A stretch of DNA of 64,000 nucleotides from an uncultured Clostridia bacterium (GTDB taxonomy: Bacteria; Bacillota; Clostridia; Christensenellales; UBA1242), in NCBI GenBank assembly GCA_944381185.1, contig CALWKE010000002.1, positions 217,731 through 281,730 on the forward strand, given 5' to 3'. Of the stretch, positions 4,131-64,000 are shown piece by piece. Position 1 is the stretch's first letter. Each line of letters starts with the position of its first letter. Below the pieces are notes generated by a model. The model saw only the letters and a program-made list of their open reading frames with translations. It was not told where the DNA came from and searched no databases. The position numbers and the translations under genes were made by a program.

Positions 4131-4136
4131 GAAAAT

Positions 4137-17518: not shown

Positions 17519-17526
17519 AAATTCTC

Positions 17527-19984: not shown

Positions 19985-20147
19985 ACTTATCTTTTATCCT
20001 TTTCATTGAATTAAATAAATTTTTAAAACATGTTTCACATAGATATGAATCACCTTTAAAACTATTTGTTTCTAAACGATATTTTGCTTTTTTATTGCAC
20101 ATTATAGTATCGCATTTAGTAATAAAAATTGGTGTACTAATTTTCAT
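19968..20147 (-). CDS. Small (59 aa) Cys4 zinc-ribbon-like protein, not in the ORF track
   Basis: My translation is MKISTPIFITKCDTIMCNKKAKYRLETNSFKGDSYLCETCFKNLFNSMKRIKDKYETEK. GGAG lies 7 nt upstream of ATG 20147. Cys spacing is C-x4-C-x19-C-x2-C. The ORF overlaps the portal start by 17 nt. Confidence 0.45.
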   Translation of the reverse strand: MKISTPIFITKCDTIMCNKKAKYRLETNSFKGDSYLCETCFKNLFNSMKRIKDKYETEK

Positions 20148-51100: not shown

Positions 51101-54092
51101 CAATTTTGATATATCAACAAAATGTGGTTTCTTGGTATTCAATTCTGTTGATGGTAGTAATGATTACTATGTTCCATCACTCTATGCAACCACTTCAAAA
51201 TCAGGATTTAGTAGTGAATCAAATGAATATTTTGGTGAAATTTACAAAGACGCTGATGGCAACTTATATGTTAAAAAAGAAAAAACTACTTATCATTTAA
51301 ATAAAACTGGAGAGTCAGACCCTACTCTTACAACAGAATCTAAAGAAATTTACTTTAGAGTTATTAAATATTATGAAACTGACACTTATGCAGAATATAG
51401 TGCAGACTATATTAGTGATTATGTAAACAAATCATCTGATTATGATGATGAATCAACTCCACTTGTAATTTTTGATTCTAAAAACATTTCAACTTATGAA
51501 AGTGCTGAAGGATCTAAATTTAACATTAGTCAAAATAAATTCTACAGCAATGAAATTTTAAATGTAACTGGAAATATTGTTGCTGGAAACAGCAAATATA
51601 TCTACTCTATCTTCTATTTTGATAATGAAGGAAACTTTGTTTATGATGGATATGCACACCATGTAACAACAAAAGAAATTTCTGAATCAACAACTGGTTC
51701 TATACCTTATATGGTTTACAACCAAACAGTAACAATTGACGGCGTTGATTACATATTTGCAGTATCTGCATCAACTGCACTGGGAACATATAATCCAGAC
51801 ACAAATAACACAAACTGGTGGGTTCAATACACAACTGCTTATATTGACACGGTTATTTCAAATTACACATTGAATGGTGGTGATTCAAATTCATCTAACC
51901 CATACAAACAAGCTTATGAAAATATTATGAGAACAATAATATTGACATCTGAATATGATTCTAATTTAGCAACAAATCGCACTAATAATATCTCTAGCAC
52001 AAATATTAATAACTACATTGAAAATTATTCAAAATTTGTTGATATTTCTAGAGGTTCAAGTGGTGATGTTGTTAAATTGAAAGAAAATTTATTCACAATT
52101 TCAATTGATGGAAATGAATATGATAGTTCAAGTTTCAGAAGTGACAGAACAACAATAACTTCATCAGATTCTGATAATCCATTTATGCAAGGTGAATTTT
52201 ATGGAACTTTACATTATAAATATGTTACATCAGCAGATGGTGTTCTTCAGATAATTTTATATGCTGAATTACGCATTCCATATAATTCAAATGGTCAACC
52301 ACCTATTGTAACAATTACTGGACATGATAATAAGATTGCTAATGGTGAAGACCCTAATTATAACCTGTCTTATGTCGGTGCAACTGTTAATTATAATAAT
52401 GTATATGAAGACCATAACCTTAACCTATCAGAAACAGATACAAACTATAAGCCACTTTCTGTTACAGAAAGGTTTGCGACAAGATATGATAACTACACCT
52501 CTGGTGTTGGAGTTGACTCATATTACATTAGCCAACCTCAAGATGTAACTGGATTCTTCCAAGAAATCTATACTGGCGGTTATTCAAATTCAAACACAGC
52601 TGAAATTCCTAATCTTAATGTTACTGTTAATTTGGTGTATAGACATCAAATAAAACAAATTTTAGCAAATGTAACAATAGATGAAAACGAATCTATGGTT
52701 GGTGAAGATTATATGACAAATAATAATAATCAAACAACCATAAGTCTTTTGAATAACAGTTCATATAGTTTCTTATCAAACAATTCAAATTGGCAGAAAT
52801 TATATAGCAAAAATCTTTTAAATGAACAAGTTTTAGCAGAATCTCCAGTAAATGATGATTTGATTGATTTATTAGGAAATAAAGGTAAGAAGAATCCTGA
52901 TCCAAATCAAATCAGAATGAATGGTTGGATGATTGAGCAATATAGTGTTTATGTTATTCCAAACGCATATCTAGTTCTTGATATGATTGATTCAATTATT
53001 CATGATAAGAGATATGCAAGTCGTGCATCAGTTAAAAAAGAGGCAACAATGTATCAAGCATACATTTTAACTTATGACCCTGAATGCTACTCTCAAAATC
53101 AATATCTGTTTAGTGAAGATTCTAAATATACTTATAAAGAATTATTTGAATTTTTAACACTCTATTACAGAGATGATGATGGCAATACGAACATTAACTT
53201 GCCAAGTCCAAATCAAGTAAAGAGCTTTATGAAAGTTAGAAAAATTGACTTCTTCACAACAGCAAGGCGTGGTGTTTACTCTAACTTTACCGGCAACTAC
53301 TTCACTCAAAATGACTTGCTTGTGACATCAACAATTTTAAAGCCAAAATATCAAGAAGCACTTGAATACGATACGCGAATTATATGGCTTATTGAAAATT
53401 ATGGTGGTTCTCGTCCTTATAGTTATTATGATAATGCAACAGCATCAATTGACTATTCAGGGCAAAATAATACTGGTAAAATCAATATGTCACCTGCAAC
53501 AATAGGAAACAAATATTTAACTGATAGCATTTCTCAAGGTTTGATATTCCAATTCTATAGGTTGCAATCAGACTTGACTAGTGACAAGTTGGCAACTATT
53601 GGTGCGGTATCACTTCTATCTCCAGATGAATTTTCAACTGGCGGAGGGTCAAGTGGTTCGCAACAAATTAACTATATAACATCAAATGTTGAAATTAATG
53701 CATTCATGTTATATGACGAAAATAACGACTACGATTCTAAAGATAACTATAAAAACAGAGCTGTTATTGAAGAATTTTGTTTCATAAGAACATATGCATC
53801 TGATATTATTGATGTCGGTTCAAAAATTGGTGCAGGACTTGCAATAGCTGTTTCAATACTTGTCTCTGGTGGTACGGCGACAGCAATTTGGGCTACTATC
53901 GGTGGTGTTTTATTAGTCGGTGGTAATGTCGTATCTAATTTAGGACAAGGTCAAGAAGCCATAATTAGTGGATTATTCCAATTACTTCCTGACACTGTGT
54001 TAAATGGTATTTCTGGTGATGATTTTGAAAAACAACTAGAATATCTTTATAACCAAGGTGCGGGCACCGAATGCTTACTGCATCAGACATGA
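24153..54092 (+). CDS. Giant (9,979 aa) predicted cell-surface protein with an N-terminal lipoprotein-type signal peptide, divergent Listeria-Bacteroides (Flg_new)-like beta modules and a C-terminal hydrophobic anchor
   Basis: One open frame of 29,940 nt. The other five frames over the same interval give no ORF above 107 aa in the track. Strong RBS. N-terminus is MKKLAKSNSKRILSKLAKSISLCLLAFVSIFFVAC|GQ. The C-terminus contains IGAGLAIAVSILVSGGTATAIWATIGGVLLVGG. A terminator follows the TGA stop. Confidence 0.9.
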   Translation: MKKLAKSNSKRILSKLAKSISLCLLAFVSIFFVACGQTSSAKESGFDANGRYRLNAPNIIHYNQTSDGTYNEYTGSFLVPMEFYNGNDYKSQTSGLDAFNLENFLKNYDQVGNWAISENDGTRLSSTDLLYPDYTFWVDGIIYQVHVSVNLSQLEIVRTAGGSANSYFNATNYVSALDDLSNIFKFSYRVGTSGVWQDADGFISAVYLKVNDATNTTDVISGKLGNQDDSYDKVFYMAFNPILQNGNTTRRIRVKATPNANISSDLSAVGSSASVEYKNRGDSIYSQTIVYKAYKMSFESYSPNSAYLDYGQLSYDKNKFFFYDEQTTFSLSTNKYYLTKIDGYFPEGRIVEVNREFDNDANGDDYALQSWTANRKGQTTLVTQETILNGINFDLFEDYDRGYHSLFGTTLNEKYFAIKSFINDSDVYSNGSSYTTFENITISNDQSTRTGTVYVVSKSDYNNYTFYANFIKINNFVLKGTLFDAEKILNVENAKLENVSYQIYNKDGVAYPDKSGTTADYTFEFTGLAYGDYVVFTKEDNTDPDNPISYKFYGNDISGLTVAGDSEFNVLKNYVTRETKLTAIVVTEIYNNVVSYVDPDSMSFVFNNRSYYVDENTVYDSNGNECTNFSVEYIYKVLDLTNVSVLATKYDDDTSLVVNVYALNNGDLIDPTEQGISYEVIKSVTSHVDQLGFVKTTVYVSVVLPSNATVQSYNVITDNSININLFQNSNNEFNKILKIVTLKNKEQVTNYYYVDITSNLNSSQVTVSSNGGNYLIYNDEYFAYAFKNVYNNTNYYIYQSCVSENMLVSYTSGSTQLYDFLDLETINYSTNSSDANYLAETAGGTISTGSIYSYILFNGYTYFLAPSDMDISIEGLKLTSNLPNEKFDVNVSYENEINFDEESIIQSILSSNNRTTYTKDETFNIYSGRFSIVGNLVDKYFYNLKVSAEYKLNDATHTIKSEMESLDPVVLSIEQVKFENSSEQTTYFTFYYDGVKYYYFSGKVYSQYDQYGETHFYGEISPDSNGFYEEFDYAKAAIDPSTQTVVFSKPVFTYLNRTYYLKIETTIDGKTVYTLHSDFFCTSDPIDFVSAYGYKNYSITGSNTSFSLTLVRYSVSIQSSLISNTYYINPESEYIFTNFECTQILDSGDDKYEIDLDNSKFILYNTYRTMVKFNVSGSTNYNGTYYFIDSSLVLFEKVNENYNSIKKFVYYGVSIDATNKKLSANFGTTLITKVTTINNGSFNINISNGEIEITSDTSIVDAKNAYQTVNKYFGSSNTSITATAYPTDMELSAFLIGDDYYYINEKSNELTIYAESNFTEGKILADKMLWTISEDLQSIQNIRYFSTKLGRVFESDDETYTLYDLYSDAVTSDNYKLDEIFVKIGNKSDILDSRVAYANKITLFGNSFYYESKTYYINPDEFQEGKVATIYSDEECTTKVDDIELFYNDQFTLIQITQNAETNAISLAQSIYIHDVYSIKETNVDTNRYEITLGNPTSNSPLNPTMSINGFNVDYKQDYTAKSKESICYAYYDIDSYTHLNEATNNHETQYFLTTPIAKNSVKIDENGNDITTLLFYYGVSNFDELRNNGSIVLGNEILRSTGHTAFKNAIGAKIDNSCYYYVNELGDPSTVYVYQEKTNHSNGQIVYSETEYYDEHGNLYEGEVYIKQSVFYTALFKSNSETISEMSNSETNIVDNYELKFKRTTSTGDLMYQVEYNGKVYYFSETTSPTIGDRYDLYTANVKTENGKSTDSGYDVTIIDSSTARLNYQSFTPGATSGYLTDQNGNVYNFNSSITAGDQGGNYSIVSNLDQKQDPIVELPGGAYDNFNSIIYQIRDNDTYYYQNNVVYSMVDEPLNKIRFVLNYTLYICYDSTSAVVPVNLYVINTVDNSSTGTYDGYCYIEDGKTVNAGQTVTIIKPLKDSAGKQIKFSDLYTALISGQKSIDMQFLYGSYRDDAQIYYYDANSTYYLLNGGIYYKYDEKSSSFVAATGEVNPGRLTRVNSKQNVGFSFYYNNKYYYADAVDGNVYEVDALDGHRSNKINSTYKYDTSSQTIYLSDGTTIFAKFNYSNNTVVIDGVTYPAVKSVYDYFTEKVYYLNNNSKLYKATTFDNSNSASYKFEDSDLVTEFNYIYISTDNTFEFRPAARYFVFANYKLTAITRDNATEGSDSFELIQAINSNGYATHIPSNRIITQSTVQYTNQSEYYKEPEFENKLERKIKSNVVEGGNSTHYVSGGLENSDLITLLGKFSISDSTGAVVTYPSYSILIPTTTGSAITDEDSYYPVDNTISSNATEGFPGVTMIDGVPYINQMFVFDVYHKQGMPAEVDLSILINSGYYVELISSIVEKENSQIITDFSTVTFRDTLANLNGNDYLDNMYYIVDSINYGTIAGYRLARNVSDNLTHVNYTTYYNEYRDDSSQYAYIFMYLNEYLELSAEERNSYYGLIYDHINYYQLYTSAVRITDCAMNSELSDSFIYYSDTTQIGDNGSTIYVDHIYRLVNGAFSELIDEECAIWESSSSKLTDIPYYDIHTYYQDEEGMIYLTSDIVSENQNAICEGLSGLELGATSSSSADVNYDNVIVAGLTTAFKVKTEDLQTSPTNNSFQGYWLDKAISVMNGSESANVYLECSTESVVLLASPLITFDGEIYYRLKQWKVYSRENSEYLMINNDAMAIIGDELYSPILRFTSNASGYYLFLPVYERVYSISLATEVQDGSINVGGSVSIESSSPSVSIDEDDYQDQTYFIDYLKPSDENYYYSSIETNTFLYFTGHFNSEGRPLFKQLGLSDDYSNSSSKSYMLFYYNESITTRYKLATFVGQNMISCEDVDVLSGVLKEGKSGLIRVTNNNGQYRFSQNYSYEQTLSTVNVFYDSYSFRPYVYNGEQCYIYSSNSNYNYYTITEILSYSMSTERVEEEINTTYKFRVVLQNNSFYIISDATYKNIIANSSITIDGLLTSQNKIANLVVLNFNVARQSSDDNYRQPYYSNASNNLNSGELYADENGNVYSTLQYKTNYYDRDSEILLKATAKTGYRLEGWYLATFDETYGWQVSENDITSEISTNYSDEIIKTEFANSSYVTTYTLSKKRYLPNGQTTNMTYSISSNVYIDVLFSDDMSEVPSSVVSNYAGIFANLGSSRTSPYFVQVYSKNGSTTDLYYDAEFTKPLKLTDFSVRVASFNDLWTNNYIGYMNFYDAVMTNYTYEGTTVKTDFQQLSNGDYISQSIKYTFNSQEVYAIYRYNDRTFSYDISYYRNYENGNYYVDENNVLHITNLHSNIRIVAKFIEIYKAFVFNEAEEESGISVEALYYYNEDDSKTTIRTSASGSNLTSDDIKLDGANNYFGAMALENGNPYRFSLMNDESDTSKTLFSNTESDPSKTYFDTIYNQTSKNNFNALSQLAGGTGSFEKNAYAIYRSDDYMISLRNFYFDSGTTIFLLIRLESGQQLSIHSLGLNQNYVLNFLFEPDMNAVESLNEDIDYVYYILKVTFDKNMEQTNGLTTTMGNQNPEYVLHPEKAMNLTSDVLSGNNIDFYDSYFDTFLKFNTSYSSDINMSETNYLKVVSGSNEFDLKIAYNIVSTAKYAKSFSFSQTMAETLFYWLVKNKNQGLIDLVNDDTLYKKVVQFGSDDVKNYTFNFSDYLTEQSSYQTRYNAIKTYIIEAFKMIYLTQKSNNAGYNFVRAVQTVVDYLDEVGIEIEIKTKAGEEVNYKTLSTINYYLTVSGDLYINQVLIDLILDSIVEVISPNSSLRDNLTIYTANIVAELQYRTYSRLSDFVRDLNQIIYAATYKSEIFSIDYVLYSKTYYEMLSDVETDQVSYENYISSATSTRENNMLNGINKIFYNSIQKFANYSISSSASDAITSVEGGLSLIEPKNIYTYGGPFANGIINYINLSSIKIYTVSVSTSIIDTVNISSDDSLDDQVVVSSDTNFMQNPYYILDDTIYTAGGVSSSLGDLTYIGGAYQEDITSTPVRYNIGYKKYQTFTNKFYHSSDSELYIREGDDINYSSYGDVTFAEYSIILLGGLRIKYGPRGGSANIGSSNPYDDVLTRTSNSETFFSASYKAIYDDYGNLYYVMQNDETREIYIYSNDYSTIYILPTGSINYSSVNSFEDAQEHISKAYHFAGWYLQTFNEDNGMWSNMECVSTDLYRPFVTTATSNINIAAIFAEVTNLKVTYDPETVNVSFETDEDSCGNKTLTTVNPDGTETLSGWFYYSSNPILMVSPLGGFRIANSFDFTYKTMDGDTFSYNVDLKNKEQTDGNNVVTTFDAELFGFLHYNQDTAKIEEANFNDISLTDVSYLQVNFTELMKTFNKDGDELASAFGTFDFTLNTEFIVLTYFVVEGYVESDEITGDDVVKSSIALYSYNNVKNEIDEVFFLTNSGNDVSTLEFNERYPVGKDSANNTIVVELQGSSLIFYGYFDYEKYNSYIDSSNPGNTNEFSLVTGIYHDNSVTTSEEYSAWLTNLTNMITGVNFTGNSLNNSPNTIKNEKVIYFYYGNNQTDAQDINSGANLDQSYHIIHLRATKSVNSILTVEENFYEVKTDGTVDKVDVNPTVPVPIMLIYNTDYYGEIGVNEGALKGNNGQLTFENKFSAQYKFGKNAGDNKNSYLTLSISEDYEYYYDKATDTYYKFVGYYTNSDQIIKKDNTDLIYNFSELPGGTIHAVFIKIMPISIYVTSGGSYSIEIKNNTLLTSGFWKDTIGNSIEGTSGISLDIGTANRYFSTETNSVITDKSFNYVIYGSNVTISPLATDGYAISSVTVDNNLITDENNYTTKIEYYDQTHTFQYIYSNAHIVTIKQYQLSSLSESAIAELYNDKSLAKLFVKQIDFNDADFLNSLIFDRYTNANIDKVNMKLSLADGADFYIYFFAPSTMQFVGFYKNGVLIAGSKDITPLKSITIGGETYTVYELRFSEVNNGKGAISDLSLEVRFSSIVTFETIIDGLTPDNSGEYPYDNILDDSQMEVVLDDDKNIIEYVISKTSNGNQTLGLNTNKTNPISISSGDVIDYNIFTVPNAEYSFVNYFFYKKYEATRLSSSATNNVWYSVNYEGQTYFFREDLTDLYETMDEENGVPTGDRVGVNATLDESGKYVLVESIISYNSDTNITINSIMIDNILDGQPLRIYAKFAQVVKLTFTKSVNPHNDDKNFYESPETNEEFLNYFNALIVYTNPNGNETTATLSDGLSTTITLAKSSTVRVYPYIAPQVENRYITTDTIYISTENTSRAEFKAVDGVFTIYTNASLNSYTDLSTTLQFYSAYTITINKTINGEGMDDNITNANKSNDMIHMINLSSLAEYSDGSLPVSDTHYLTSYDLIYEDIRNTTSITKLAYHNADSYTLTYPISRSSSSGTYYTTQTLSTSLMSGTNISNLVFYGWYLNGYLYSTNSTITLPLNNFMQLSTETDGYIIIYNNNSNENVISSVVPLSYDSSQGNYSFIFNDTTYRISKGTDLENFTGKIEAGGISFEYVYMASDNITFTASYGTFTKVSYTTNPIQEDGNILVNSTLSGNLLGITTSNEAITGSVGNYYIYDDTAYYNILANSKLQDSIANLGDYKLSAAVQSYTLKEDSLNNPNNSVYALTGSNLLITGGHLIGYRVIRYEFTGKRLVIRSTLNGDGQIVYTYSTEDIGNRSVSVLSGDNSMGYINLGTNEILTEIKVTVVFEEVYQVSTTVSTLDSYDDNNVSSSTSTNGGSIEVYSYNSQSSIDVNDGTFYSNTYDMLSITPKANDGYTFVGLFLDGQYLGEDQLGYDTYARTEPIILDLKNLGFAGDDCKSILLEARFAKNIKFTIRLAIEDTNLRDTIYNLYGISDRNSDLFDIKITLSSIYSNIVYGASGDVPLTEEELTKSIWDYMPVKVNVGDTYDTTENYYFEDGTPYSRDDDDGYWDEYGKATPTNPLYTHDDEFLYIEFTVAYGTHVEFEVASEDPQIQFNNNVRTYHFNGWYLYNRNQISLSNSVIDYSTVLDLYATQDYYGSTIEIIAKYDLDDVSETISTTKEIEIIDEANANLDIDINSINTSNYENGILTLNGKEYMFAGWWQVVADSTRPSTYILISNDFFDELPTVNYLVARFVRLMPITITLPEESSGYVQTRLNYRYFYTFNDVNDNRIQNYITENNNLVLHYNVPIDTYFNNTNIFAYTGHYFTITDSIKTDNYVSYIVSSSDRVNNTIGERQDVESLNYIEHNGNIYYINNNTLYNKVSAEDGSIRFYNVDSTGAETNLTIEQLDPTINSYTIRGNQVTIYYGTNNSVSRTIVAANYVIYNNNVYFVVGSNLYSSVKATDESVISSIDINGTTIYYLILNNVVIFSTDNNSNIGLSGTSIEIESINKAGFKYEVESDYDVLSVIDGGYTISYIVTTIEDDGSYGVTDSVAGGRFVSQSINTVGGTESTSKYVYSSNFPILNLRLSPSTGYTFIGLYINGEYVENSYNTLSLSINLSDYSSDIVVEAKFAKNISIEYRLSVDNSDSKSFIYQELGLTDLAIEGLINNIYSSINASYTLGDEIYSSSININDINIEDNEVSLIFIVTVPYGTRLTFGINSNLHEVQASNGTPYYFYGWYLYENNDISQSNSLVTSGGSFTIYAIDDGESTLQFVAKYLKSENTSPIYTTANIEVYSYVDDQLMIQSVSYNEFINTYGDLQLRKTINGKEYLFAGWWQVINDRTKILVSNNPTDQELISNCIGRYIELKTITIDYSEQSSISISGNLHQSFSYAQSTTISSPILSADIDVGNSDLIITTTIFSAFTNVVIRAHNGFYFRNENDVYDATEVTGLEFKLHGENYSDLFTVSNNTSEIADVYIRYSRVYSDENQFLTNVENSNPNDEVVVAIQNNNNTFRVSIVAENISTTINDANRENASSSIFVVMNGISQNNLNQNQFLDSTIQSIYIEDRIIYIYNNALYKNLLSLKIYKERFDDVYYITQNNVNYYIEFDSYGNFLKLTDSDGKDVSLNVITGYSTNVALITPDKYTLYIYTNKATNDEYNLKTTVTSDTVSCDIEYTNSNNIKATETFMIANNVVDRYYTRYTHLVVTLSKEYYTESFLGFRIIYDSGITTFYSAKVYGYSLSLIVNESVTISAQFEEAINDPNSAASNNGSSSGGNQGTEQGAPSDKPEYGDGDDQTGEIVTIETTNTSSIQYLHEIQLNISGTRLNFVYDYSSNSFEVSGNNEFGISVAGIANTSVSDDLGQIFYRNATISIPLSVYESNTITFDIITYNIYTLNVSVSQNDSSTVSSGGNNEYIAEIDILYPHDYMENQNAGNRTEFINNIKLYMYLSSIISTKDCDIISGIKLSDTMTENGFIDGFYAFETNVQLQDGVTTGAKLTGTTADGEGKYDGNVVLIQTDIYNYSLVYNFRTQGTIRIYIHPQYFTGSGYDANRTSSLILGIAEEDLIKDIIIVGNPDNQDITVGELTFDPNYKRQPSANSATGSWYVDITYYFSEPISIYFKSTYLSFSNYYYYNNGQTTPENVTQLSKDPYPLYSNNSALSISYDEYLSLRKSSQNGDMVILNCVASESIKSTTVKFEYEKANLKLTVEINGKNYIYNSNNGIFTCSATTGQTTYNTQQVELVNEIDSNDTISLTVQSFYDSSNAKYPFNIKFIYGHELVSNGARFNVELIDFEAKYQYSGLEGPNDPIVKVKDFGTYLLGFKNAYCENASQLITVSTTPGLVEPEFTFQLGENFADSNEIIIETNRYYYILYMKDYTYMNGDYGVPTIELNVTEPGVGSNKYVPLATHGTDGGRKHTFALYAYVLDGSAVEVIAGAPDESDTEHLVYGILYRENFNTLTESVLIETLLDGDINNYIYSQNNNGAIMDASVPSAIIKSETAGFTSISNLTSSTTKYIYIPESSRAYIADYYGIEGVASDIKLVGIIAPGNSSEYKYGSNPILNISSHTNGYNFIIEQSTYGSEVIFIQEVDDKYKYSQKEILEQNGNIYIDADDDEAVNSLTYTRFETTQITVYLLNNSVSQYSYLVSSSYNSNGLTTGFYKQLVLPPINEGKEMDFIVKDTIESYIEDTSVTESTFNNSVYYTIGINGSMQIAEKYENGKVYFIRSDKDLIIHGITLHYGGKDYYITNTGIYDDPSFEKEYNPAEKSIFIQPNYDDYSVKIYHFTYTFKLNGQNYTYDGKDVKDSNGNIVQGASVDFTGIPILTIGTASDIATSISIDPSATETISLIDKEEYNEIQNELQENANNPDYEDTHKYVYKLIKVRIVESEYIEYTLNDEENALIELEDGNSVSSDIVISYETKERRGVYYVEINGTIYYINNVTLYKDFECTIPVENDELDNYIVYYKEMYIDKNATPLEVKEDASGYHFGTGDAIYDFDIVTGDLTADSLKPSKPDPNYPDDPTKVINLTYRFDSPIVKIDSNKYNTVKEDIYVDQFNVGGVNYYINNLKLYSDYPFIDANKYVPNSDNPNTISSYHIFPEFIRYDSVRYTKVNDNPSDYNAIQYQSDSGETITLNESTGVVTKIIDGVSTDITSNVKFSNSKVVRYKLYVENADGSVTESSSEQIINSGKDYIIDIINSEATGSFSSTYTDVTITKLQANAYDGYYIKGFVIFSDAELAKDRNMWLHYELDTTTANGLAGLQGLDTYSSFKYMNYIPIEYQTYQSDVNDAYELIKDENGNIVSVALNINLKLNGSFKIYAVYAPVIYSVSFNILNVQEIISKDGVINYNDIYNRFLISDNLEETTAGYIKGQMLAEHGGNAWIRAFANQGSEFIGLSLAYSSMTEQIQSIYSNLTIDNNLSVDEVINSGILDAGDEGLDDDKLNLYKAQGVNAPYEENGTKKYYFLSEKNMYYDIYGNPENPDDTNYVNSGNINATSSTDKINSLFLFNITDDVTLNFYFKSIEYTLDIVIGESNSGYYDSDNDAGTNSNGVDNASGSDSFLSYGEDVINGTNENGESWKNPTNNMVSEALGDLPYTDVISSEGSKVDDASGFYSLDKENPYKFISDTDPLVYTIFDYQGNLISAQWKDANGAITERVNPSAILSSTINFDISTKCGFLVFNSVDGSNDYYVPSLYATTSKSGFSSESNEYFGEIYKDADGNLYVKKEKTTYHLNKTGESDPTLTTESKEIYFRVIKYYETDTYAEYSADYISDYVNKSSDYDDESTPLVIFDSKNISTYESAEGSKFNISQNKFYSNEILNVTGNIVAGNSKYIYSIFYFDNEGNFVYDGYAHHVTTKEISESTTGSIPYMVYNQTVTIDGVDYIFAVSASTALGTYNPDTNNTNWWVQYTTAYIDTVISNYTLNGGDSNSSNPYKQAYENIMRTIILTSEYDSNLATNRTNNISSTNINNYIENYSKFVDISRGSSGDVVKLKENLFTISIDGNEYDSSSFRSDRTTITSSDSDNPFMQGEFYGTLHYKYVTSADGVLQIILYAELRIPYNSNGQPPIVTITGHDNKIANGEDPNYNLSYVGATVNYNNVYEDHNLNLSETDTNYKPLSVTERFATRYDNYTSGVGVDSYYISQPQDVTGFFQEIYTGGYSNSNTAEIPNLNVTVNLVYRHQIKQILANVTIDENESMVGEDYMTNNNNQTTISLLNNSSYSFLSNNSNWQKLYSKNLLNEQVLAESPVNDDLIDLLGNKGKKNPDPNQIRMNGWMIEQYSVYVIPNAYLVLDMIDSIIHDKRYASRASVKKEATMYQAYILTYDPECYSQNQYLFSEDSKYTYKELFEFLTLYYRDDDGNTNINLPSPNQVKSFMKVRKIDFFTTARRGVYSNFTGNYFTQNDLLVTSTILKPKYQEALEYDTRIIWLIENYGGSRPYSYYDNATASIDYSGQNNTGKINMSPATIGNKYLTDSISQGLIFQFYRLQSDLTSDKLATIGAVSLLSPDEFSTGGGSSGSQQINYITSNVEINAFMLYDENNDYDSKDNYKNRAVIEEFCFIRTYASDIIDVGSKIGAGLAIAVSILVSGGTATAIWATIGGVLLVGGNVVSNLGQGQEAIISGLFQLLPDTVLNGISGDDFEKQLEYLYNQGAGTECLLHQT
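41090..42380 (+). repeat. Copy A of a divergent tandem module of about 430 aa inside the giant ORF
   Basis: Colinear with copy B. Shared anchors are GYTFVGLFLDG, EARFAKNI, YHFNGWYLYN, IIAKY and NGKEYMFAGWWQV. A 37-nt stretch from 42207 is identical at 36 of 37 positions to the stretch from 44061. Confidence 0.8.
43130..44220 (+). repeat. Copy B of the divergent tandem module
   Basis: Anchors GYTFIGLYING, EAKFAKNI, YYFYGWYLYEN, FVAKY and NGKEYLFAGWWQV occur in the same order as in copy A. The anchor offsets are in frame (2004 nt and 1854 nt). Confidence 0.8.
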
Positions 54093-56828: not shown

Positions 56829-58634
56829 TTAAATTTTATCTTCACTATTGTTTTTAATTAAACTGATATGAATTTCTTCAATTTGTTTATCGGTTACAAA
56901 ATCAGGTGCTTCCATAACAAGGTCTGCACTTGTTTGAATTTTAGGAAATGCAATAACTGACTTAATATCAGATGAACCTGAAAGTAACATAACAAGCCTG
57001 TCAAGTCCAAAGGCTAACCCACCATGTGGTGGTGCACCATATTTAAATGCTTCAATGAAAAATCCAAAAAGTTCGTTAATTTTCTTATCATCCATACCAA
57101 GTGCTTCAAACATTTTAGCCTGAAGTTCAGGGTCATGAATTCTAATACTTCCACCACCAACTTCATATCCGTTGATAACAATATCATATGCTTTTGCATA
57201 TACTTTTTCAGGACTGGTTAACAAATATTTAATACAGTCATCTTTAGGAGCAGTAAACGGATGATGAAGTGCAACAAATCTTTCTTCTTCATCACTATAT
57301 TCAAATTCAGGAAAATCAACAACCCAGAGTGCATTAAATTTTGATTTATCAATTAAATCAAACTTTTCAGCAAGATGAAGTCGAAGTTTGCCAAGAGCAG
57401 TTAAAACAATTTTATTTTTTGCATCAGCCACAAAGAATATAACATCGCCTTTTGTTGCATTAGTTCTCTTAATAATTTCATCAATTTGTTCTTTTGTAAA
57501 GAATTTTAATAAAGGACTCTTTGGAGTATCTTCTTCAAAAGTAATATAACTCATGCCCGGAGCACCAGTTCCCTTGACAAAAGTAACAAGTTTTTCAAGT
57601 TCAGTTCTAGATAATTTTTCAAACATTCCCTTTCCGTTAATAACACGAACACTGCCACCTTGAAGCACTGCATTTTTAAATGGAACAAGTGTGCAATCTT
57701 TTGCTAGGTCAGAAATATCAACAAGTTCAAGTCCAAATCTTGTATCTGGCTTATCAGAACCATATTTTGACATGGCTTCATCATAAGTAATTCGTGGTAA
57801 TGTCCCTAGATCATAGCCAATTGTGTCTTTGAAAATTTTAACAAAAAGTTTTTCAGTTATTTGCATAACTTGTTCTTCTTTATCAACAAAAGACATTTCC
57901 ATATCGACTTGAGTAAATTCTGGTTGCCTGTCAGCTCTTAAATCTTCATCTCTAAAACATTTTGCAATTTGATAATATCTATCAATACCAGAAATCATTA
58001 AAAGTTGTTTATAAAGTTGTGGACTTTGTGGAAGAGCAAAAAACTTGTTTGGAAAAACTCGGCTAGGAACTAAATAATCTCTAGCACCCTCTGGAGTAGA
58101 TTTTCCAAGAATTGGGGTTTCAACTTCAATAAATGAATTGTTATCAAAAAAATCACGAACAATTTTACATATCTCGTTTCGCAAAAGAAGTTTTTGCATA
58201 ACAACATCTCTTCTAATATCAAGATACCTGTATTTTAATCTAACAGAATCTGAAGGACTGTCGTCTTCGTTAATTTGAAAAGGTATTGGCAAACTTTTCG
58301 CTAATACTTTCATTTTAACAGCACGGATTTCAATATATCCAGTTTTGCTTTTTGGATCAATAGTATCTTCTTCTCTTTTTACAAGTTTTCCACAAACTGA
58401 AATAACAAATTCATTTCTTAATTTGTCAACTTTATCATAATCATCTAAAAATTTTGACCTATCAAAAACAACTTGAAGTTTACCAGTTCTGTCACGAAGG
58501 TCAACAAACACAAGGTCACCAAAATCCCTTCTGTTAGCAACCCAACCATGTGCAACAACTTCACTATCCAAATCATCAGTAGTAAATTCTCCACAAAATT
58601 TTGTTCGTTCTAATCCATCTAAAATATCTAACAT
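56829..58634 (-). CDS. aspS: Aspartate--tRNA ligase
   Basis: Colinear with bacterial AspRS, including the OB-fold N-terminus HGWVANRRDFGDLVFVDLRDRTG and class II motifs (FRDEDLRADRQPEFTQ, GGGSIRIH, GLAFGLDR). I moved the start to ATG 58634 (MLDILDG), which has AAGGAGA 6 nt upstream. The track start at 58673 lies inside the terminator/leader. Confidence 0.93.
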   Translation of the reverse strand: MLDILDGLERTKFCGEFTTDDLDSEVVAHGWVANRRDFGDLVFVDLRDRTGKLQVVFDRSKFLDDYDKVDKLRNEFVISVCGKLVKREEDTIDPKSKTGYIEIRAVKMKVLAKSLPIPFQINEDDSPSDSVRLKYRYLDIRRDVVMQKLLLRNEICKIVRDFFDNNSFIEVETPILGKSTPEGARDYLVPSRVFPNKFFALPQSPQLYKQLLMISGIDRYYQIAKCFRDEDLRADRQPEFTQVDMEMSFVDKEEQVMQITEKLFVKIFKDTIGYDLGTLPRITYDEAMSKYGSDKPDTRFGLELVDISDLAKDCTLVPFKNAVLQGGSVRVINGKGMFEKLSRTELEKLVTFVKGTGAPGMSYITFEEDTPKSPLLKFFTKEQIDEIIKRTNATKGDVIFFVADAKNKIVLTALGKLRLHLAEKFDLIDKSKFNALWVVDFPEFEYSDEEERFVALHHPFTAPKDDCIKYLLTSPEKVYAKAYDIVINGYEVGGGSIRIHDPELQAKMFEALGMDDKKINELFGFFIEAFKYGAPPHGGLAFGLDRLVMLLSGSSDIKSVIAFPKIQTSADLVMEAPDFVTDKQIEEIHISLIKNNSEDKI

Positions 58635-58663
58635 AATATTTCTCCTTTTTATTACTTTAAATG

Positions 58664-58695
58664 AAAAAAGCACATCCGAGTTATTTCGAATGTGC
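58664..58695 (-). terminator. Attenuator terminator in the aspS leader
   Basis: Minus strand reads GCACATTCGA-AATAAC-TCGGATGTGC (10 bp, one G-U) followed by TTTTTT. It ends 16 nt before the aspS RBS. Confidence 0.75.
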
Positions 58696-58746
58696 CAAAC
58701 ATTAAAATTTTAACAATTAACAAAATAACCCATTTAATAATGTGCT

Positions 58747-58788
58747 TTAGTCGTTATTATTGTTATTATTGTTAATAAATCTTTTCAT
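58747..58788 (-). CDS. Leader peptide MKRFINNNNNNND (seven Asn codons then one Asp codon) upstream of aspS
   Basis: Minus strand reads GAGGT-aact-ATG AAA AGA TTT ATT AAC AAT AAT AAC AAT AAT AAC GAC TAA. It lies between a near-consensus promoter and the attenuator terminator. Confidence 0.6.
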   Translation of the reverse strand: MKRFINNNNNNND

Positions 58789-58810
58789 AGTTACCTCAAT
58801 AAACAATAAA

Positions 58811-58839
58811 ATATTATCATAATTATTCACTAATGTCAA
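58811..58839 (-). promoter_or_regulatory. Sigma-A type promoter of the aspS leader
   Basis: Minus strand has TTGACA (58839..58834), 17-nt spacer and TAATAT (58816..58811). Confidence 0.7.
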
Positions 58840-58966
58840 TAACTTTTAAATAATTTACAAAAAGTTATATTTATATAATTGATAATATAATTTAATAAAT
58901 AAAATTTTACAACAAATATGCAATTTTATATCAATATTTCATTTAAAATAAATAAATTTTGCGTTT

Positions 58967-59560
58967 TTATAAATTAATAATATAATTATAAATATCTTTC
59001 CAATTGCTAAAATAAACAATGTTTTTATTAACAAATGATTTTTTTATTTCATTTGTTATTCTAATTGTTTTTATACCTAAAAGAGCAGAAGCTGTGCAAT
59101 TTGTTAAACTATCATCAATAAATAAATCTATTTTTTGATTTTGAATTTCAATAGACTTATTTTTAGCATTAACAACAATTTTATCATACATTATGTTATT
59201 TTTATCAAGCCAATCTTTGCTTAATTTATATGGGTCTTCATGAAAAACAGTATCTCTTGCTGTTATTATAATAATTTTATTGCCCATTGCTTTTAATTTA
59301 TTAATTGCTTGAACTGCAAAATCTCTTGGCTTTGCGTTGTTCATAATTTCTTCCTGAATATCTCGCATAAAAAACATGAATTCATCATCATTAAAATTAA
59401 AATATTTTTGATAACATGAACCATCATTTTTTACATCTTCAATAATTTTATTTGTTTTTGGCAAAGGTTTCCCCAACTCTTTTAAATAATTAAATCCACT
59501 ATTATAAAATTCTTTTTTTATATCAGTTATTGTATCGTCTATATCAACCCCAATATTCAT
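58967..59560 (-). CDS. HAD-superfamily hydrolase, 5'(3')-nucleotidase-like
   Basis: 197 aa. HAD motif I DIDDT at residues 6-10, motif II IIIITARD, motif III/IV K..DLFIDDS. RBS GAAGGTG. Confidence 0.6.
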   Translation of the reverse strand: MNIGVDIDDTITDIKKEFYNSGFNYLKELGKPLPKTNKIIEDVKNDGSCYQKYFNFNDDEFMFFMRDIQEEIMNNAKPRDFAVQAINKLKAMGNKIIIITARDTVFHEDPYKLSKDWLDKNNIMYDKIVVNAKNKSIEIQNQKIDLFIDDSLTNCTASALLGIKTIRITNEIKKSFVNKNIVYFSNWKDIYNYIINL

Positions 59561-59583
59561 TTATCACCTTCTAAATTAATTTT

Positions 59584-59645
59584 AAATAAAAATGCGAACT
59601 TTAGATTTGAGTTAAAACTATTAAAACTCGCATTCAAGTTCGCAT
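59584..59645 (-). terminator. Long hairpin terminator downstream of tRNA-Leu
   Basis: Minus strand has ATGCGAACTT...AAGTTCGCAT (10-bp outer stem with an inner GAGTT/AACTC helix) followed by TTTTATTT. Confidence 0.6.
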
Positions 59646-59655
59646 TATTAAAATT

Positions 59656-59741
59656 TGGTGCCGAAGGCGGGACTTGAACCCGCACGAAGTTACCCTCAAC
59701 AGATTTTGAGTCTGTCGTGTCTGCCATTTCACCACTTCGGC
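59656..59741 (-). tRNA. tRNA-Leu (anticodon CAA), class II long variable arm, CCA encoded
   Basis: Minus strand reads GCCGAAGTGGTGAAATGGCAGACACGACAGACTCAAAATCTGTTGAGGGTAACTTCGTGCGGGTTCAAGTCCCGCCTTCGGCACCA. Acceptor stem GCCGAAG/CTTCGGC, anticodon stem ACAGA/TCTGT with loop CU-CAA-AA, T-arm GCGGG-TTCAAGT-CCCGC. Confidence 0.93.
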
Positions 59742-59825
59742 AAATTATTTATATGTCACTTAACGAGAACTATAATAACATATAAACAATTTTTTTGCAA
59801 TAAAAATTAATAAATTTAATTTATT

Positions 59826-60557
59826 TTACCAAATCTCATCGCCTTCATTATCATCAGCATGCGACATAAAAGTTTCTTCATTGTCATTTTGTTTTTCAAT
59901 AAGTTTTTTCATCTTTTTGTTCTCACGCTGTTCTTTATTAAATTTATGTGCAATTTTTGATATTGTGTTAACAACAAAGTTGTATTTCATATAAGTATCT
60001 TCATTTGGTTCTTCATAAATATCTTCAATTTTAATTAAATGTTTCTCATCACCTGATGTGTTTAATGAAACATTATAGCCTAAAACTTCACCCGTTCTTG
60101 TGTTTATCATGCTAAGTAAACCTTTTGCATTAATTTTAACAAGACCCGCTGTGTCGTTATTAAAAATAAAGAAATTTGAACTTTTATCAAATTCACCAAC
60201 ATAATCACATAAAAAATAATTATCACGAAGTTCTGAATTATCTGAATAAACTTTGTGAATTTTTACTTTTCTAATGCTTGCCTGTTCAAAATTTGAAGTA
60301 GCCGGAAAGTGTATTCCAAGTTTATCAAACATTGCCCTATCAAAACAACTTGAAATACTTTCTTGAGATTGCAGATGCATTTGGTTTATGCAGTCAAGTT
60401 TATTATCTTGTTTTCTTACTCTTAAATATATATTGCCTTCATTATCATAAAGCCAAACTCTAACAACCTTATGCCATAAACCTTTATAATGAACATCAAA
60501 TTCATCTTCAGATGATTGAAAAACACCATTTTCATCAAATGTATCGTAATATTCCAT
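59826..60557 (-). CDS. Nudix-fold-like protein with a degenerate Nudix box
   Basis: 243 aa. The N-terminus, YYDTFDENG..HYKGLWHKVVRVWLYDNEGNIYLRVRKQDNK, matches the Idi/YfcD-like Nudix pattern. The box region reads QESISSCFDRAMFDKLGI, with REx2EE replaced by RAx2DK. The gene starts 9 nt after the cysS stop. Confidence 0.5.
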   Translation of the reverse strand: MEYYDTFDENGVFQSSEDEFDVHYKGLWHKVVRVWLYDNEGNIYLRVRKQDNKLDCINQMHLQSQESISSCFDRAMFDKLGIHFPATSNFEQASIRKVKIHKVYSDNSELRDNYFLCDYVGEFDKSSNFFIFNNDTAGLVKINAKGLLSMINTRTGEVLGYNVSLNTSGDEKHLIKIEDIYEEPNEDTYMKYNFVVNTISKIAHKFNKEQRENKKMKKLIEKQNDNEETFMSHADDNEGDEIW

Positions 60558-60566
60558 AATACCTCT

Positions 60567-61994
60567 TTATATTTTTTTATCTAAAACATCAACACCTAAT
60601 TCTATTAATTTGTCACGAATATAATCAGATAGTTGATAATTTTTTTCAGAACGCAATTTTGTTCTAATATCAGAAATCAAATTTAAAAGTTCAGAATCTT
60701 TAGTTTTATTTTCTGATTTTATTTTATCACAAACAAACTCTAATCCCAAAACATCTTCAACAACTTTTATAATAGAATTTATAATTATTAAGGTTTCTGA
60801 CTCATTATTTTTTAATGCATTACTTGCAAGTTTAGAAAGTTTTAAAACTTCTGCCATTGCAAGAGGTGTATTAAAATCATCACTCATAGCTGAAATAAAA
60901 TTATTATAAATTTCAGAAAGTTCATCATTATTTATTTTATTACTTTTTAAATTAATAATTTTGTTTAAAGATTTTTCTTTTACTTGTGAAAAATTTTCAA
61001 CAAGCTTGTCATACTGCTCTTTAACTTTGCTTATTGCATTAAAACTAAAATCAACTGGTTTTCTATAATGAAATTGCAAAATATAATATCTTATTAAAAG
61101 TGGGTCAAATTTTTCAAATAAATCATTAAGTGTGATGAAGTTACCTAAACTTTTACCCATTTTTGTTCCATTAACAGTAACAAGATTATTATGCATAAAA
61201 TAATTAACAAAAGGTTTTCCGTTAGCAACTTCACTTTGAGCAATTTCACTATCATGATGAGGAAATATATTATCAATTCCACCACCATGAATATCAAATG
61301 TTTCACCTAAAAATTTGCGGCTTAATGTTGAACATTCAATATGCCAGCCCGGATATCCAACTCCCCAAGGTGAATTCCATTTCATTATGTGTCCACCGAC
61401 TGCTGATTTCCATAAGGCAAAATCTTCCGGATATTCTTTATCATCTGCAACAGAGATTCGCTCTCCTGAAAGATTATTTTCAATTTTTCTATTTGAAAGT
61501 TTTCCATAATCAGAAAATTTATGAACTGAAAAGTAAACATTGCCCTGTTTTGTCACATAAGCATATCCTTTTTCAATTATTTTTTGGATAAATTCAATAA
61601 TATCAGGAATAAAGCCTGTTGCTCTTGCACTAATGGTTGGTCTTTTAATATTAAGCTTATCCATAAAATAAAAATATTCTGTTTCATATTTATATGCAAG
61701 TGCATATGGGTCAACATTCTCTTTTTGGGCTTGAACCAAAATTTTATCTTGACCATCATCACTATCACCAACCAAATGGCCAACATCAGTTATATTTTGA
61801 ACATATTTAACATTATAGCCAGCATATTCAAAAAATCTTCTAACAACATCAAAATTAACATAAGATTTTGCATGACCTAAATGTGGTGGACCGTAAACAG
61901 TTGGACCACAAACATACATTCCAACCCTTCCTTCTTGAATTGGTTTAAAAATTTCTTTTTTTCTTGACAATGAATTATAAATAAATATTTGCAT
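60567..61994 (-). CDS. cysS: Cysteine--tRNA ligase
   Basis: HIGH motif PPHLGHAKSY and KMSKS motif TKMGKSLGN, colinear with CysRS. I moved the start to ATG 61994 (MQIFIYNS), 6 nt downstream of GGAGG (62005..62001). The track start at 62000 abuts the RBS. Confidence 0.93.
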   Translation of the reverse strand: MQIFIYNSLSRKKEIFKPIQEGRVGMYVCGPTVYGPPHLGHAKSYVNFDVVRRFFEYAGYNVKYVQNITDVGHLVGDSDDGQDKILVQAQKENVDPYALAYKYETEYFYFMDKLNIKRPTISARATGFIPDIIEFIQKIIEKGYAYVTKQGNVYFSVHKFSDYGKLSNRKIENNLSGERISVADDKEYPEDFALWKSAVGGHIMKWNSPWGVGYPGWHIECSTLSRKFLGETFDIHGGGIDNIFPHHDSEIAQSEVANGKPFVNYFMHNNLVTVNGTKMGKSLGNFITLNDLFEKFDPLLIRYYILQFHYRKPVDFSFNAISKVKEQYDKLVENFSQVKEKSLNKIINLKSNKINNDELSEIYNNFISAMSDDFNTPLAMAEVLKLSKLASNALKNNESETLIIINSIIKVVEDVLGLEFVCDKIKSENKTKDSELLNLISDIRTKLRSEKNYQLSDYIRDKLIELGVDVLDKKI

Positions 61995-62007
61995 AAACAT
62001 CCTCCAA

Positions 62008-62039
62008 ACAAAAAAGATGAGCAGTTATCTACTCATCTT
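62008..62039 (-). terminator. Attenuator terminator in the cysS leader
   Basis: Minus strand reads AAGATGAG-TAGATAACTG-CTCATCTT followed by TTTTG, ending 2 nt before the cysS RBS. Confidence 0.7.
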
Positions 62040-62088
62040 AATATATTAGACAACTGAAAAAAACCTTATAAAAAGGTTAAAATTTTAT

Positions 62089-62115
62089 TCAGTTACAACA
62101 ACACATTTTTTTCAT
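62089..62115 (-). CDS. Leader peptide MKKMCCCN (three consecutive Cys codons) upstream of cysS
   Basis: Minus strand reads GAGGG-aaat-ATG AAA AAA ATG TGT TGT TGT AAC TGA, about 15 nt downstream of the predicted transcription start of a consensus promoter. Confidence 0.65.
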   Translation of the reverse strand: MKKMCCCN

Positions 62116-62136
62116 ATTTCCCTCAAATATACAAAA

Positions 62137-62165
62137 ATTATATACTAGCATTAAATTTATGTCAA
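62137..62165 (-). promoter_or_regulatory. Consensus sigma-A promoter of the cysS leader
   Basis: Minus strand has TTGACA (62165..62160), 17-nt spacer and TATAAT (62142..62137). Confidence 0.75.
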
Positions 62166-62175
62166 GCATATTAAA

Positions 62176-64000
62176 TTACAAATTCTTCCCCACAAAATAA
62201 CCAGACTGAATTATTGTTGCCATGTCACAAATTTCTAATGCGTTACCTATTAAAAAAAGTTGACCATTATATCCACTTTTTACCAACTCATAATATATTT
62301 TATTGTTTGGATATATATCTGGCTCATAAATAAATAGATCACAGTCAATTGTTTTTGCCTTTGCCTCAAAAGAATAATTTGATCCAGAAATATAATTTAA
62401 AATAAGTGATTGAAAATTTTTATTTTTCAATTTATTATTAACAAAAATCTCAATAAAATCCTCTTGAATATATTTAACTTTTGAAAAAGGATAAACTTTC
62501 GCTTTAAGTTTTTTAAAAGCAAACAAATAATAAGTAAGCCTATCATTTGGTATGTTTTTTAAAAAATCCATAGACTCAATTATTATTGATATTTTTTTAT
62601 TTTGATTCAAAAGATATAGAGCAAGTTTAAAAGATAATTCTGATTTTGCATTAATAACAATATGTTCTTTTTTTTCAAAAATTTTATATGAATCTAAACA
62701 ATCAAATATACTTTTAACATTTTTTAAAATAGCACCTGTAATGTTTAAAAATTTTTCGTGAAAACCAGATGCAACAACAATTGAACAATATTTTTTTAAA
62801 TCATAACTATTAACATCAAAATTTTTATTTAACAATAATGTAATATTTTCATGAAAATTATGAACTTCATTTTCGAGATAGTCGTTATAATCATTAAGCA
62901 ACTTATCATATCCAAAAATTTCGCACCTTCTTGAACTACTATTAATTTTATTATTTCTATCATAAATATCAACGCAAAAACCTCTTCTTGCAAGTGTTAT
63001 TGCACAAATAATTCCTGATAAACCTGCACCAATAATTGCAACTTTTTTTGTTTTATTATAGCTTGAAAATAATAGTGTTTTGTTTATTAGTTCTGGATTG
63101 ATTGCACACTCAATTTTACCATTTTTTTTCGATATTTGGTCACAAAATGAACATTTTATACAATTTTTAGATATTTTTTGCGTTTTTTCATTTAATAAAA
63201 ACCTGCTATCACTATAAATATTTTTAGTGACATCAAAAATATCAATTAAGTTATTATTTAATAATTGTTCACATAGTCTTAAATCATTATAATAATCTTT
63301 AATTAATATTTTAACTGGCAAATCAAACTTTGTTTTTAATGAAGTATTTTCAAAAAACTGTTTTATTTCTTTAACGAAATTTTCAAATAGATTTTCTTTT
63401 TGAAACTGATTAAAAGTTTTAAAAAATTCAGTTTCATATGTTCCAAATTCAAATATAAATGCGTCAACACCAAAGTTAACAAGTTGTGTTAAAAATTTAA
63501 ACAAATTAAAACCATTTTTGTTTATTTTAATATTTTTTATTGTGTTTATTTCTTTAATATTTTTTTCATAAACAATTTCAATAAATGAAGAAAGAGTTAT
63601 ATTATACACCAAATTAATGTTTTTGATTTCTGTAACAATTGATGAAATTATTTTAGATGGAAAATCAATTAATTCTGAAAAATAACCAAATTTTCTTCTA
63701 TTAAATTCATAGCTAGAAAACTCACCAACAATGCCGAATAAATTTCCATCAATAAGCACACCATCAAATCCTAAATTAATTGCCATTTTAGAAGCATTTT
63801 TATATTCTTCGACAATTTGATAACATTTGTTATCAGACAGCCTTACACATGGCAAATTTGCCTCATTATAAGATTTGTTATTTGATGCTGAATATGAAAA
63901 TATATTTAAAAACTTATTTTCATTGTCCGCTCTTCCATATATTGATTTTATTGTTAAAAATATTTTAGTTCCATATCTATGAATATTTGAAATCGTTTTA
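62176..64000 (-). CDS. Old-Yellow-Enzyme/2,4-dienoyl-CoA-reductase-like flavoprotein (TIM-barrel domain, Fe-S Cys motif, FAD/NAD(P) Rossmann domain). The 5' end lies beyond the right window edge.
   Basis: The track M at 63855 is an internal TTG. My translation stays open to nt 64000 (..IHRYGTKIFLTIKSIYGRA.., OYE-like). It contains CIKCSFCDQ..ECAINP (FadH-type Fe-S motif) and VAIIGAGLSGIICAITLARRG (a GxGxxG dinucleotide fold). Confidence 0.7.
   Translation of the reverse strand, partial: KTISNIHRYGTKIFLTIKSIYGRADNENKFLNIFSYSASNNKSYNEANLPCVRLSDNKCYQIVEEYKNASKMAINLGFDGVLIDGNLFGIVGEFSSYEFNRRKFGYFSELIDFPSKIISSIVTEIKNINLVYNITLSSFIEIVYEKNIKEINTIKNIKINKNGFNLFKFLTQLVNFGVDAFIFEFGTYETEFFKTFNQFQKENLFENFVKEIKQFFENTSLKTKFDLPVKILIKDYYNDLRLCEQLLNNNLIDIFDVTKNIYSDSRFLLNEKTQKISKNCIKCSFCDQISKKNGKIECAINPELINKTLLFSSYNKTKKVAIIGAGLSGIICAITLARRGFCVDIYDRNNKINSSSRRCEIFGYDKLLNDYNDYLENEVHNFHENITLLLNKNFDVNSYDLKKYCSIVVASGFHEKFLNITGAILKNVKSIFDCLDSYKIFEKKEHIVINAKSELSFKLALYLLNQNKKISIIIESMDFLKNIPNDRLTYYLFAFKKLKAKVYPFSKVKYIQEDFIEIFVNNKLKNKNFQSLILNYISGSNYSFEAKAKTIDCDLFIYEPDIYPNNKIYYELVKSGYNGQLFLIGNALEICDMATIIQSGYFVGKNL

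Follow-up and report, generated by a model that had tools for sequence, protein, structure and literature searches.

The genes of aminoacyl-tRNA synthetases in Bacillota are usually controlled by the T-box riboswitch (RF00230), and the trp, his, pheA and pheST (pheM) leaders of Escherichia coli are the classical cases of ribosome-mediated attenuation (Yanofsky 1981, cited in PMC4007540). Leaders with runs of Cys codons have been described in other groups. The uORFC-8-2 element, with 145 examples, all located before cysS in Rhodobacterales, pairs a terminator with an upstream open reading frame (uORF) in which two Cys codons stand in tandem (Brewer et al., RNA Biol 2021, PMC8632094). For the cysS mRNA leader of Deinococcus deserti, which encodes a 10-residue peptide with two Cys, transcription attenuation has been proposed (de Groot et al., Genome Biol Evol 2014, PMC4007540). 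Poly-Cys short ORFs (sORFs) controlling cysteine-metabolism operons were predicted in Mycobacterium (PMC1262725), and a later preprint showed by experiment that the leaderless poly-Cys sORFs sense cysteine via ribosome stalling (Canestrari et al., bioRxiv 10.1101/834739). In Bacilli, hisS paralogs carry His leader peptides in place of T-boxes (Naville & Gautheret 2010, PMC2965389). Here we analysed the leader that precedes cysS on the minus strand of a stretch of 64,000 nucleotides (nt) from an uncultured Clostridia bacterium (contig CALWKE010000002.1, hereafter the window), and we consider it very probable that this leader acts by ribosome-mediated transcription attenuation through a leader peptide and adjusts cysS to the available Cys-tRNA(Cys). 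The sequence-only reading from which we started had overstated the novelty of this arrangement, because Cys-codon uORF attenuators before cysS are published in other phyla (PMC8632094, PMC4007540). A full-text literature search returned no description of the present element, nor any of cysS or aspS being controlled by a leader peptide in Clostridia.

We re-read the minus strand between positions 61700 and 62600 and found every element of the sequence-only reading at the coordinates it had given. The leader-cysS transcript is headed by a sigma-70-type promoter, TTGACA-17-TATAAT (62137..62165), which matches the consensus at 12 of 12 positions and is the sole such match between 59500 and 64000. 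A Shine-Dalgarno (SD) sequence (GAGGG-N4-ATG, 62120..62124) precedes a predicted mini-ORF of eight codons, ATG AAA AAA ATG TGT TGT TGT AAC TGA (62089..62115), that would encode MKKMCCCN and contains three tandem Cys codons (62095..62103). Segment 1 (GUAACUGAA, 62088..62096) spans the end of the mini-ORF, from the last Cys codon through Asn to the stop, plus one base more. Its partner in the minimum free energy (MFE) structure is segment 2 (TTCAGTTGTCTA, that is UUCAGUUGUCUA; 62047..62058), and nested within this helix 1:2 lies a small hairpin (AACCUU/AAGGUU) with a U run behind it (62057..62078). Segment 2 is also complementary, over a 10-base-pair (bp) helix, to segment 3 (UAGAUAACUG, 62022..62031), which is the apex of an intrinsic terminator recovered both by folding and by terminator calling (62006..62039, including the terminal UUUUGUUU). 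The terminator stem (62039..62014) is trailed by TTTTGTTT, and this is the only terminator-like site called within 59500..64000. Its position was correctly predicted, but the 10-nt loop that had been assigned to it was not: UAG and CUG pair, which gives a stem of 11 bp capped by an AUAA tetraloop, so that segment 2 has both the loop and the three uppermost pairs to compete with. The whole leader is about 120 nt long and in the fold it leaves the SD of cysS (GGAGG, 62005..62001) outside the terminator hairpin. The cysS gene with its SD occupies 60567..62005, starts at ATG 61994, and its product scores 491.6 bits against the TIGR00435 cysS model (cut-off 340).

The MFE fold of the leader consists of just two elements, helix 1:2 (with the small hairpin inside it) and the terminator, and is more stable than the folds of all 200 shuffled sequences (z = -3.55). 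TGA is a genuine stop codon in the window, since an uninterrupted ORF of 9,979 codons stays open there under table 11. The 5' arm and apex of the terminator (62022..62036, minus strand; the same motif is present in all relatives) read TGA-G-TAG-A-TAA and so offer a stop codon in each frame, which may result from the pairing constraints or may protect against ribosomes entering from upstream. Two other readings of the leader were considered and rejected. A second small ORF starting from UUG in segment 2 is not retained, as two relatives (L007 and L161) have UUA and the frame is unconserved; its stop is uninformative, TGAGTAGATAA holding a stop in every frame. The small hairpin is no SD/anti-SD pair (AAGG/CCUU) either, as no start codon stands at a conserved distance from it.

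We then looked for known RNA families. A search of the entire window with Rfam at the gathering score returned neither T-boxes nor further families of leaders or riboswitches, and the same was true of region 58000..64000 at E ≤ 10. When the cysS leader was isolated (196 nt), the search at E ≤ 10 again found no T-box. Assignment of either this leader or that of aspS (see below) to a known family was rejected, since Rfam at both settings yielded only sub-threshold terminator-like matches. No T-box (RF00230) was detected at the gathering score in 141 kb of related loci, and neither Stem I, nor a specifier loop, nor a T-box bulge is present in the cysS leader. These results agree with the initial claim that cysS is preceded by something other than a T-box or another riboswitch.

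Relatives of this locus were found by CysS-based searches; they are uncultured gut metagenome-assembled genomes (MAGs) labelled Clostridia, Eubacteriales or Lachnospiraceae, with 27-31% GC. The comparison set consisted of 21 non-redundant cysS leaders whose CysS is 66-83% identical to that of the window; more than 100 CysS homologues fall within this identity range. The motif formed by segment 2 and segment 3 occurred once per locus and always just upstream of cysS (24 loci), and no further copy of it was found in the window at up to 3 mismatches. The promoter, TTGAC[A/T]-17/18-TATA[A/C]T, was at the same relative position in all 21 leaders, and the relatives have a purine-rich AGAGG or AAGGA where the mini-ORF SD lies. 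As the sequence-only reading had anticipated, both the mini-ORF and the Cys codons persist in relatives: M-x-K-(x)-C-C-(C/N)-N-UGA is present in 18 of the 21 leaders, and an ORF with a Cys run in 19. Cys-codon changes are confined to third positions and synonymous (first codon, TGT 17 and TGC 2; second, TGT 17 and TGC 2; third, TGC 11 and TGT 7), while the residues preceding the run are variable (MKK, MKKM, MLKI, MQKL, MKKI, MKL, MKKL, MTL). Such a combination is the signature of regulatory codons and not of a functional peptide. Among the 18 canonical leaders, 32-41 nt separate the stop codon from segment 2, compared with 22 nt in L170; between segments 2 and 3 the spacer measures 10-24 nt and is variable in sequence. 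Within the segments themselves CAGUURUC (segment 2) and UAGAURACUG (segment 3) are invariant in the 21 leaders. Nearly all relatives retain the core of the small hairpin, ACCUU...AAGGU (two have GCCUU), and they differ in the length of its loop and stem.

More distant loci delimit the element. In L010-L015, whose CysS is 61-64% identical, there was no mini-ORF, no motif and no T-box. A scan of metagenome contigs with the segment 2-segment 3 DNA pattern gave 0 matches, and a CysS-based metagenome scan added no leader-bearing locus (L081 is cut at its 5' end and L082-L086 fall in the leaderless group). Short ORFs beginning with MCC (MCCHLLK, MCCPARPSRCR, MCCLNKRNV) also precede cysS in unrelated phyla, one case being a MAG that bears the label Chloroflexota (L060). 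They lie at about -335 from cysS in L113, L115 and L116, at about -245 in L060, L118 and L119, and at -94 in L114. These could be independent Cys leaders or chance occurrences.

Pairing was counted on an alignment of the 21 leaders (A1), and the same counts with the partners slid served as control. Helix 1:2 is 94% paired across relatives, with one of its pairs appearing as C-G in 11 leaders, U-G in 8 and U-A in 2. In the terminator stem two pairs show compensatory changes (for instance AUGAG/CUCAU and GUGAG/CUCAC). Taken jointly, these two structures are 96% paired, to be compared with 35-49% in the control. Helix 2:3 (CAGUUGUCUA with UAGAUAACUG, 10 bp) is 98.6% paired, compared with 19-51% when slid, and two of its pairs have undergone one-sided changes that preserve pairing (G-U to A-U and U-A to U-G). 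The expectation that pairings would be supported across species was thus borne out by the variation at one pair of helix 1:2 and by compensatory changes in the terminator; helix 2:3 is conserved, but its double compensatory change was not found. The near-invariance of segments 2 and 3 comes from their interlocking, because segment 2 has to pair with both the coding segment 1 and segment 3, and the ends of segment 3 also pair together atop the terminator.

We next compared folds with and without a ribosome. Full-length unmasked leaders gave helix 1:2 and the terminator in nearly all species. To represent a stalled ribosome, the mask was set for a stall on the last Cys codon and the transcript was ended at segment 3, before the 3' arm of the terminator exists. 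Helix 2:3 then formed in every leader with a Cys-run ORF, so that the proposed switch was reproduced in all 19. The attenuator logic of the sequence-only reading therefore has computational support, with one amendment: of helix 2:3 and the terminator, the former is the weaker in thermodynamic terms and could act only kinetically.

The cysS leader thus combines a predicted translatable ORF, tandem codons that match the regulated gene, an intrinsic terminator and mutually exclusive pairings, of which 2:3 is documented by conservation and one-sided changes. Stalling, pausing, a kinetic competition and a response to cysteine would be linked as follows. Transcription would start about 7 nt past the -10 box, and the 8-codon mini-ORF would be translated while RNA polymerase moves on, probably pausing at the small hairpin and U run; these plausibly form a pause site that gives the ribosome time to load. 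When charged tRNA(Cys) is plentiful, the ribosome would finish and leave, and segment 1 (GUAACUGAA) would pair with segment 2 (UUCAGUUGU). The same pairing is expected if no ribosome has loaded. The 11-bp terminator would then form and transcription would end about 15 nt before cysS. When charged tRNA(Cys) is scarce, the ribosome would stall on UGU-UGU-UGU and cover segment 1, leaving segment 2 free to capture the apex UAGAUAACUG as it emerges, at a time when the terminator still lacks its 3' arm. Segment 3 joins the lower stem arms with no nucleotides in between; on steric grounds, an apex held in the 10-bp helix 2:3 could not loop back and would thereby block nucleation of the terminator. 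The polymerase would then read into cysS and probably into the next gene too. Because the stop codon lies within segment 1, the ribosome should never reach segment 2, and termination would depend on ribosome release and not on ribosome position.

The next gene is an ORF of 243 residues (59826..60557, minus strand) located 9 nt past the cysS stop. Searches of Pfam and NCBIfam gave no significant match for it. A gene of 241-244 residues follows cysS in every relative whose downstream region was fetched, and the ORF of the window is probably co-transcribed with cysS and hence under the same attenuator.

Several observations weigh against this mechanism. The run TGYTGYTGY is by itself no rarity, as the window contains it 16 times; the real evidence for a leader that is more than chance is conservation across species. 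Three leaders keep segments 2 and 3 but depart from the canonical plan. In L004 the ORF has degenerated into MIRHCYLY followed by a stop, the Cys run is lost, and the start of the ORF has gained a stretch, AUUAGACA, with complementarity to the 3' portion of segment 2; the ORF is absent from L017, and L170 retains CCC but has lost AACUGAA (segment 1). These leaders fit the idea that, with a terminator present, an antiterminator must stay for cysS to be expressed, and they also leave some room for a factor acting in trans. For helix 2:3, no double compensatory change exists among the 21 leaders and 7 of its 10 pairs never vary, so covariation neither proves nor disproves it. With the mask applied to the full-length transcript, the terminator is still in the MFE structure of all leaders except L009, which means that antitermination must be kinetic. 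Lastly, the stop codon inside segment 1 is always UGA, and a ribosome waiting there would free segment 2 as well; discrimination of cysteine would depend on fast ribosome release.

A second leader in the window bears on these questions. Promoter, mini-ORF and terminator stand directly before a gene in only two cases, cysS and aspS, which are the window's two synthetase genes. The aspS gene (56829..58634, minus strand, start ATG 58634) is preceded by a leader that extends from promoter to U6 (58663..58839). It contains a TTGACA-17-TG-TAATAT promoter (58811..58839), a predicted mini-ORF with an SD before it, MKRFINNNNNNND and a stop (58746..58787), and an 11-bp terminator followed by U6 (58669..58696). 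The run of seven Asn codons in this ORF is unique in the window, for a chance expectation of 0, and a G/U-rich segment, GGGUUAUUUUGUUAAUUGUU, is complementary both to the Asn-codon run and to the terminator apex. When the ORF was masked in folding, GGGUUAUUU paired with the apex GAAAUAACUC, a behaviour identical to that seen in cysS. A relative whose AspS is 76% identical (L174) has MFMIINNNNNNNNSNTF and a stop, the same GGGUUAUUU segment, and a terminator with compensatory stem changes around a conserved AAAUAAC loop. The mini-ORF ends with UAA in both genomes. Of the indirect evidence for a 2:3 helix in the cysS leader, this independent instance of apex capture is the strongest. Both apices contain AUAACU, a mimic of the Asn codon in segment 1, and the two attenuators may have been derived from one another by duplication. 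Whether this clade of gut Clostridia, low in GC and with small genomes, has replaced T-boxes at several aminoacyl-tRNA synthetase genes by ultra-compact leader-peptide attenuators that capture the terminator apex is a tentative proposal, for which we would give somewhat less than even chances. Asn codons before aspS suggest a non-discriminating aspartyl-tRNA synthetase (AspRS) that feeds Asn-tRNA synthesis; on the above proposal, reading of the 7-8 Asn codons in the aspS leader would imply that such an enzyme supplies Asn-tRNA through GatCAB.

Since a ribosome at the stop codon could act like one stalled on Cys codons, the element might sense general translation status (ribosome availability, slow initiation, or slow release at UGA, which depends on release factor 2) and not cysteine. 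The stop is indeed always UGA and inside segment 1, and from the geometry a terminating ribosome would mask this segment like a stalled one. We nevertheless find this reading unlikely: the tandem Cys codons are strictly conserved while their neighbours vary, the regulated gene is cysS, and the UGA is also fixed by the pairing of AACUGAA with UUCAGUU, whereas the aspS leaders of the window and of L174 use UAA.

Another view is that segment 2 and the apex are the binding site of a factor acting in trans (cysteinyl-tRNA synthetase (CysRS), another protein, or tRNA(Cys) in a T-box-like manner), the mini-ORF being secondary. Conservation of segments 2 and 3 as sequence, as well as in their pairing, speaks for such a site, as does their retention without a Cys-run ORF in L004 and L017. 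Against it, the interlocking pairing constraints account for the invariance, and neither a T-box or other family match nor the Stem I, specifier loop and T-box bulge are found. In addition, the mini-ORF bears a coding signature, with Cys changes at third positions only, and the aspS leader repeats the design in another sequence. We hold this view to be quite unlikely.

That the unit from promoter to terminator is an independent small gene (a micropeptide MKKCCCN, thiol- or metal-binding for example, or a small RNA) adjacent to cysS by accident is very improbable. The unit is complete, with promoter, SD, ORF and terminator, and its CCCN motif is conserved; however, it lies directly before cysS in all 24 loci, some 15-27 nt from the cysS start, and no separate cysS promoter was called in this gap in the window. 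Furthermore, the peptide has just 7-8 residues and a variable N-terminus, and the 3' end of its ORF is complementary to a downstream segment that is itself complementary to the terminator apex. Least probable of all, a hairpin that merely terminates or insulates the upstream oxidoreductase gene, with ORF and complementarities due to chance, would suit a terminator placed about 140 nt downstream of the oxidoreductase stop codon, but this is already contradicted by the conservation data, as a consensus promoter, conserved in 21 of 21 leaders, lies between that stop and the terminator, the ORF and segments are conserved across species with CysS 66-83% identical, and the leader fold has a z of -3.55.

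Other features of the window were also noted. The oxidoreductase gene upstream of the cysS leader (62176..63855, minus strand) is listed with 559 residues, from a TTG that follows an in-frame stop; its homologues in relatives have 705-739 residues (Oxidored_FMN and Pyr_redox_2), and the copy in the window may have suffered a 5' disruption. Positions 3808..4132 (minus strand) encode a bacterial class A RNase P RNA (249.8 bits). Between about 9900 and 23700 (minus strand) stands a block of ORFs almost without family matches, whose members include a P22-like portal (18125..19984) and, at 20574..22007, a large terminase; the block is likely a prophage or the remnant of one. A single uninterrupted ORF of 9,979 residues covers 24153..54092 (plus strand), and relatives have giant genes of 10,675 and 12,312 residues with no Pfam match on record (L165, 1..7496 and 17354..21413). 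Together with the 1.17 Mb contig of one relative, these giant ORFs suggest that the genome is small and that giant proteins take up much of it.

If cysS is controlled by a leader-peptide attenuator as proposed, ribosome-based sensing of an amino acid at this gene would extend to a third bacterial group, with an apparently independent origin, and this group belongs by its MAG labels to the Bacillota, whose synthetase genes are, in the textbook view, under T-box control. An element so minimal would be convenient for studies of attenuation kinetics and as a cysteine-responsive part. With the Asn leader of aspS, it would also give a handle on regulation and tRNA-charging pathways in an abundant uncultured gut lineage, and it marks small ORFs that annotation pipelines miss.

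Compared with the E. coli trp, his and pheA leaders, the cysS leader has the same logic: an ORF with cognate codons, an alternation between 1:2 plus terminator and a 2:3 antiterminator, and termination when translation does not occur; pheST (pheM) is a precedent for a leader peptide that controls an aminoacyl-tRNA synthetase. It differs from the trp paradigm in being much more compact (an ORF of 7-8 codons, about 120 nt in total), in that its ribosome would never reach segment 2, and in an antiterminator that pairs with the loop and top three pairs and not with the whole 5' arm. With the T-box it shares the induction of a synthetase by low charging of the cognate tRNA, through antitermination at a leader terminator. 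In contrast, it has no T-box structure or sequence, and sensing would be done by a translating ribosome and not by direct binding of tRNA. Within Firmicutes, the hisS paralogs of Bacilli are a precedent for a leader peptide in place of a T-box (PMC2965389).

The resemblance is closest with uORFC-8-2, where a tandem-Cys uORF before cysS is likewise followed by an intrinsic terminator and where stalling is proposed to cause read-through and to yield more CysRS (PMC8632094). That element belongs to Alphaproteobacteria, whereas the present one is found in low-GC gut MAGs labelled Clostridia, and no sequence relationship between the two is evident. As described in PMC8632094, the uORF of uORFC-8-2 is longer, with Cys usually at positions 14-15, compared with 7-8 codons and Cys at positions 4-7 here, and in the cysS leader described here the stop codon is within segment 1 and the antiterminator would capture the terminator apex. 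The D. deserti mini-ORF, from another phylum, is leaderless, its transcription starting at the AUG (PMC4007540), whereas our promoter predicts a 5' untranslated region of about 12-18 nt with an SD; in related leaders too, 18-25 nt lie between the end of the -10 box and the mini-ORF ATG, and this interval holds the SD. The Mycobacterium sORFs share a run of Cys codons in a very short ORF, with stalling shown by experiment there, but they are leaderless (bioRxiv 10.1101/834739) and have a translational output, the unmasking of a downstream ribosome-binding site, whereas the output here is an intrinsic terminator. Altogether, the kind of control is already known, and what is new is the lineage and the compact variant architecture, with its sibling at aspS.

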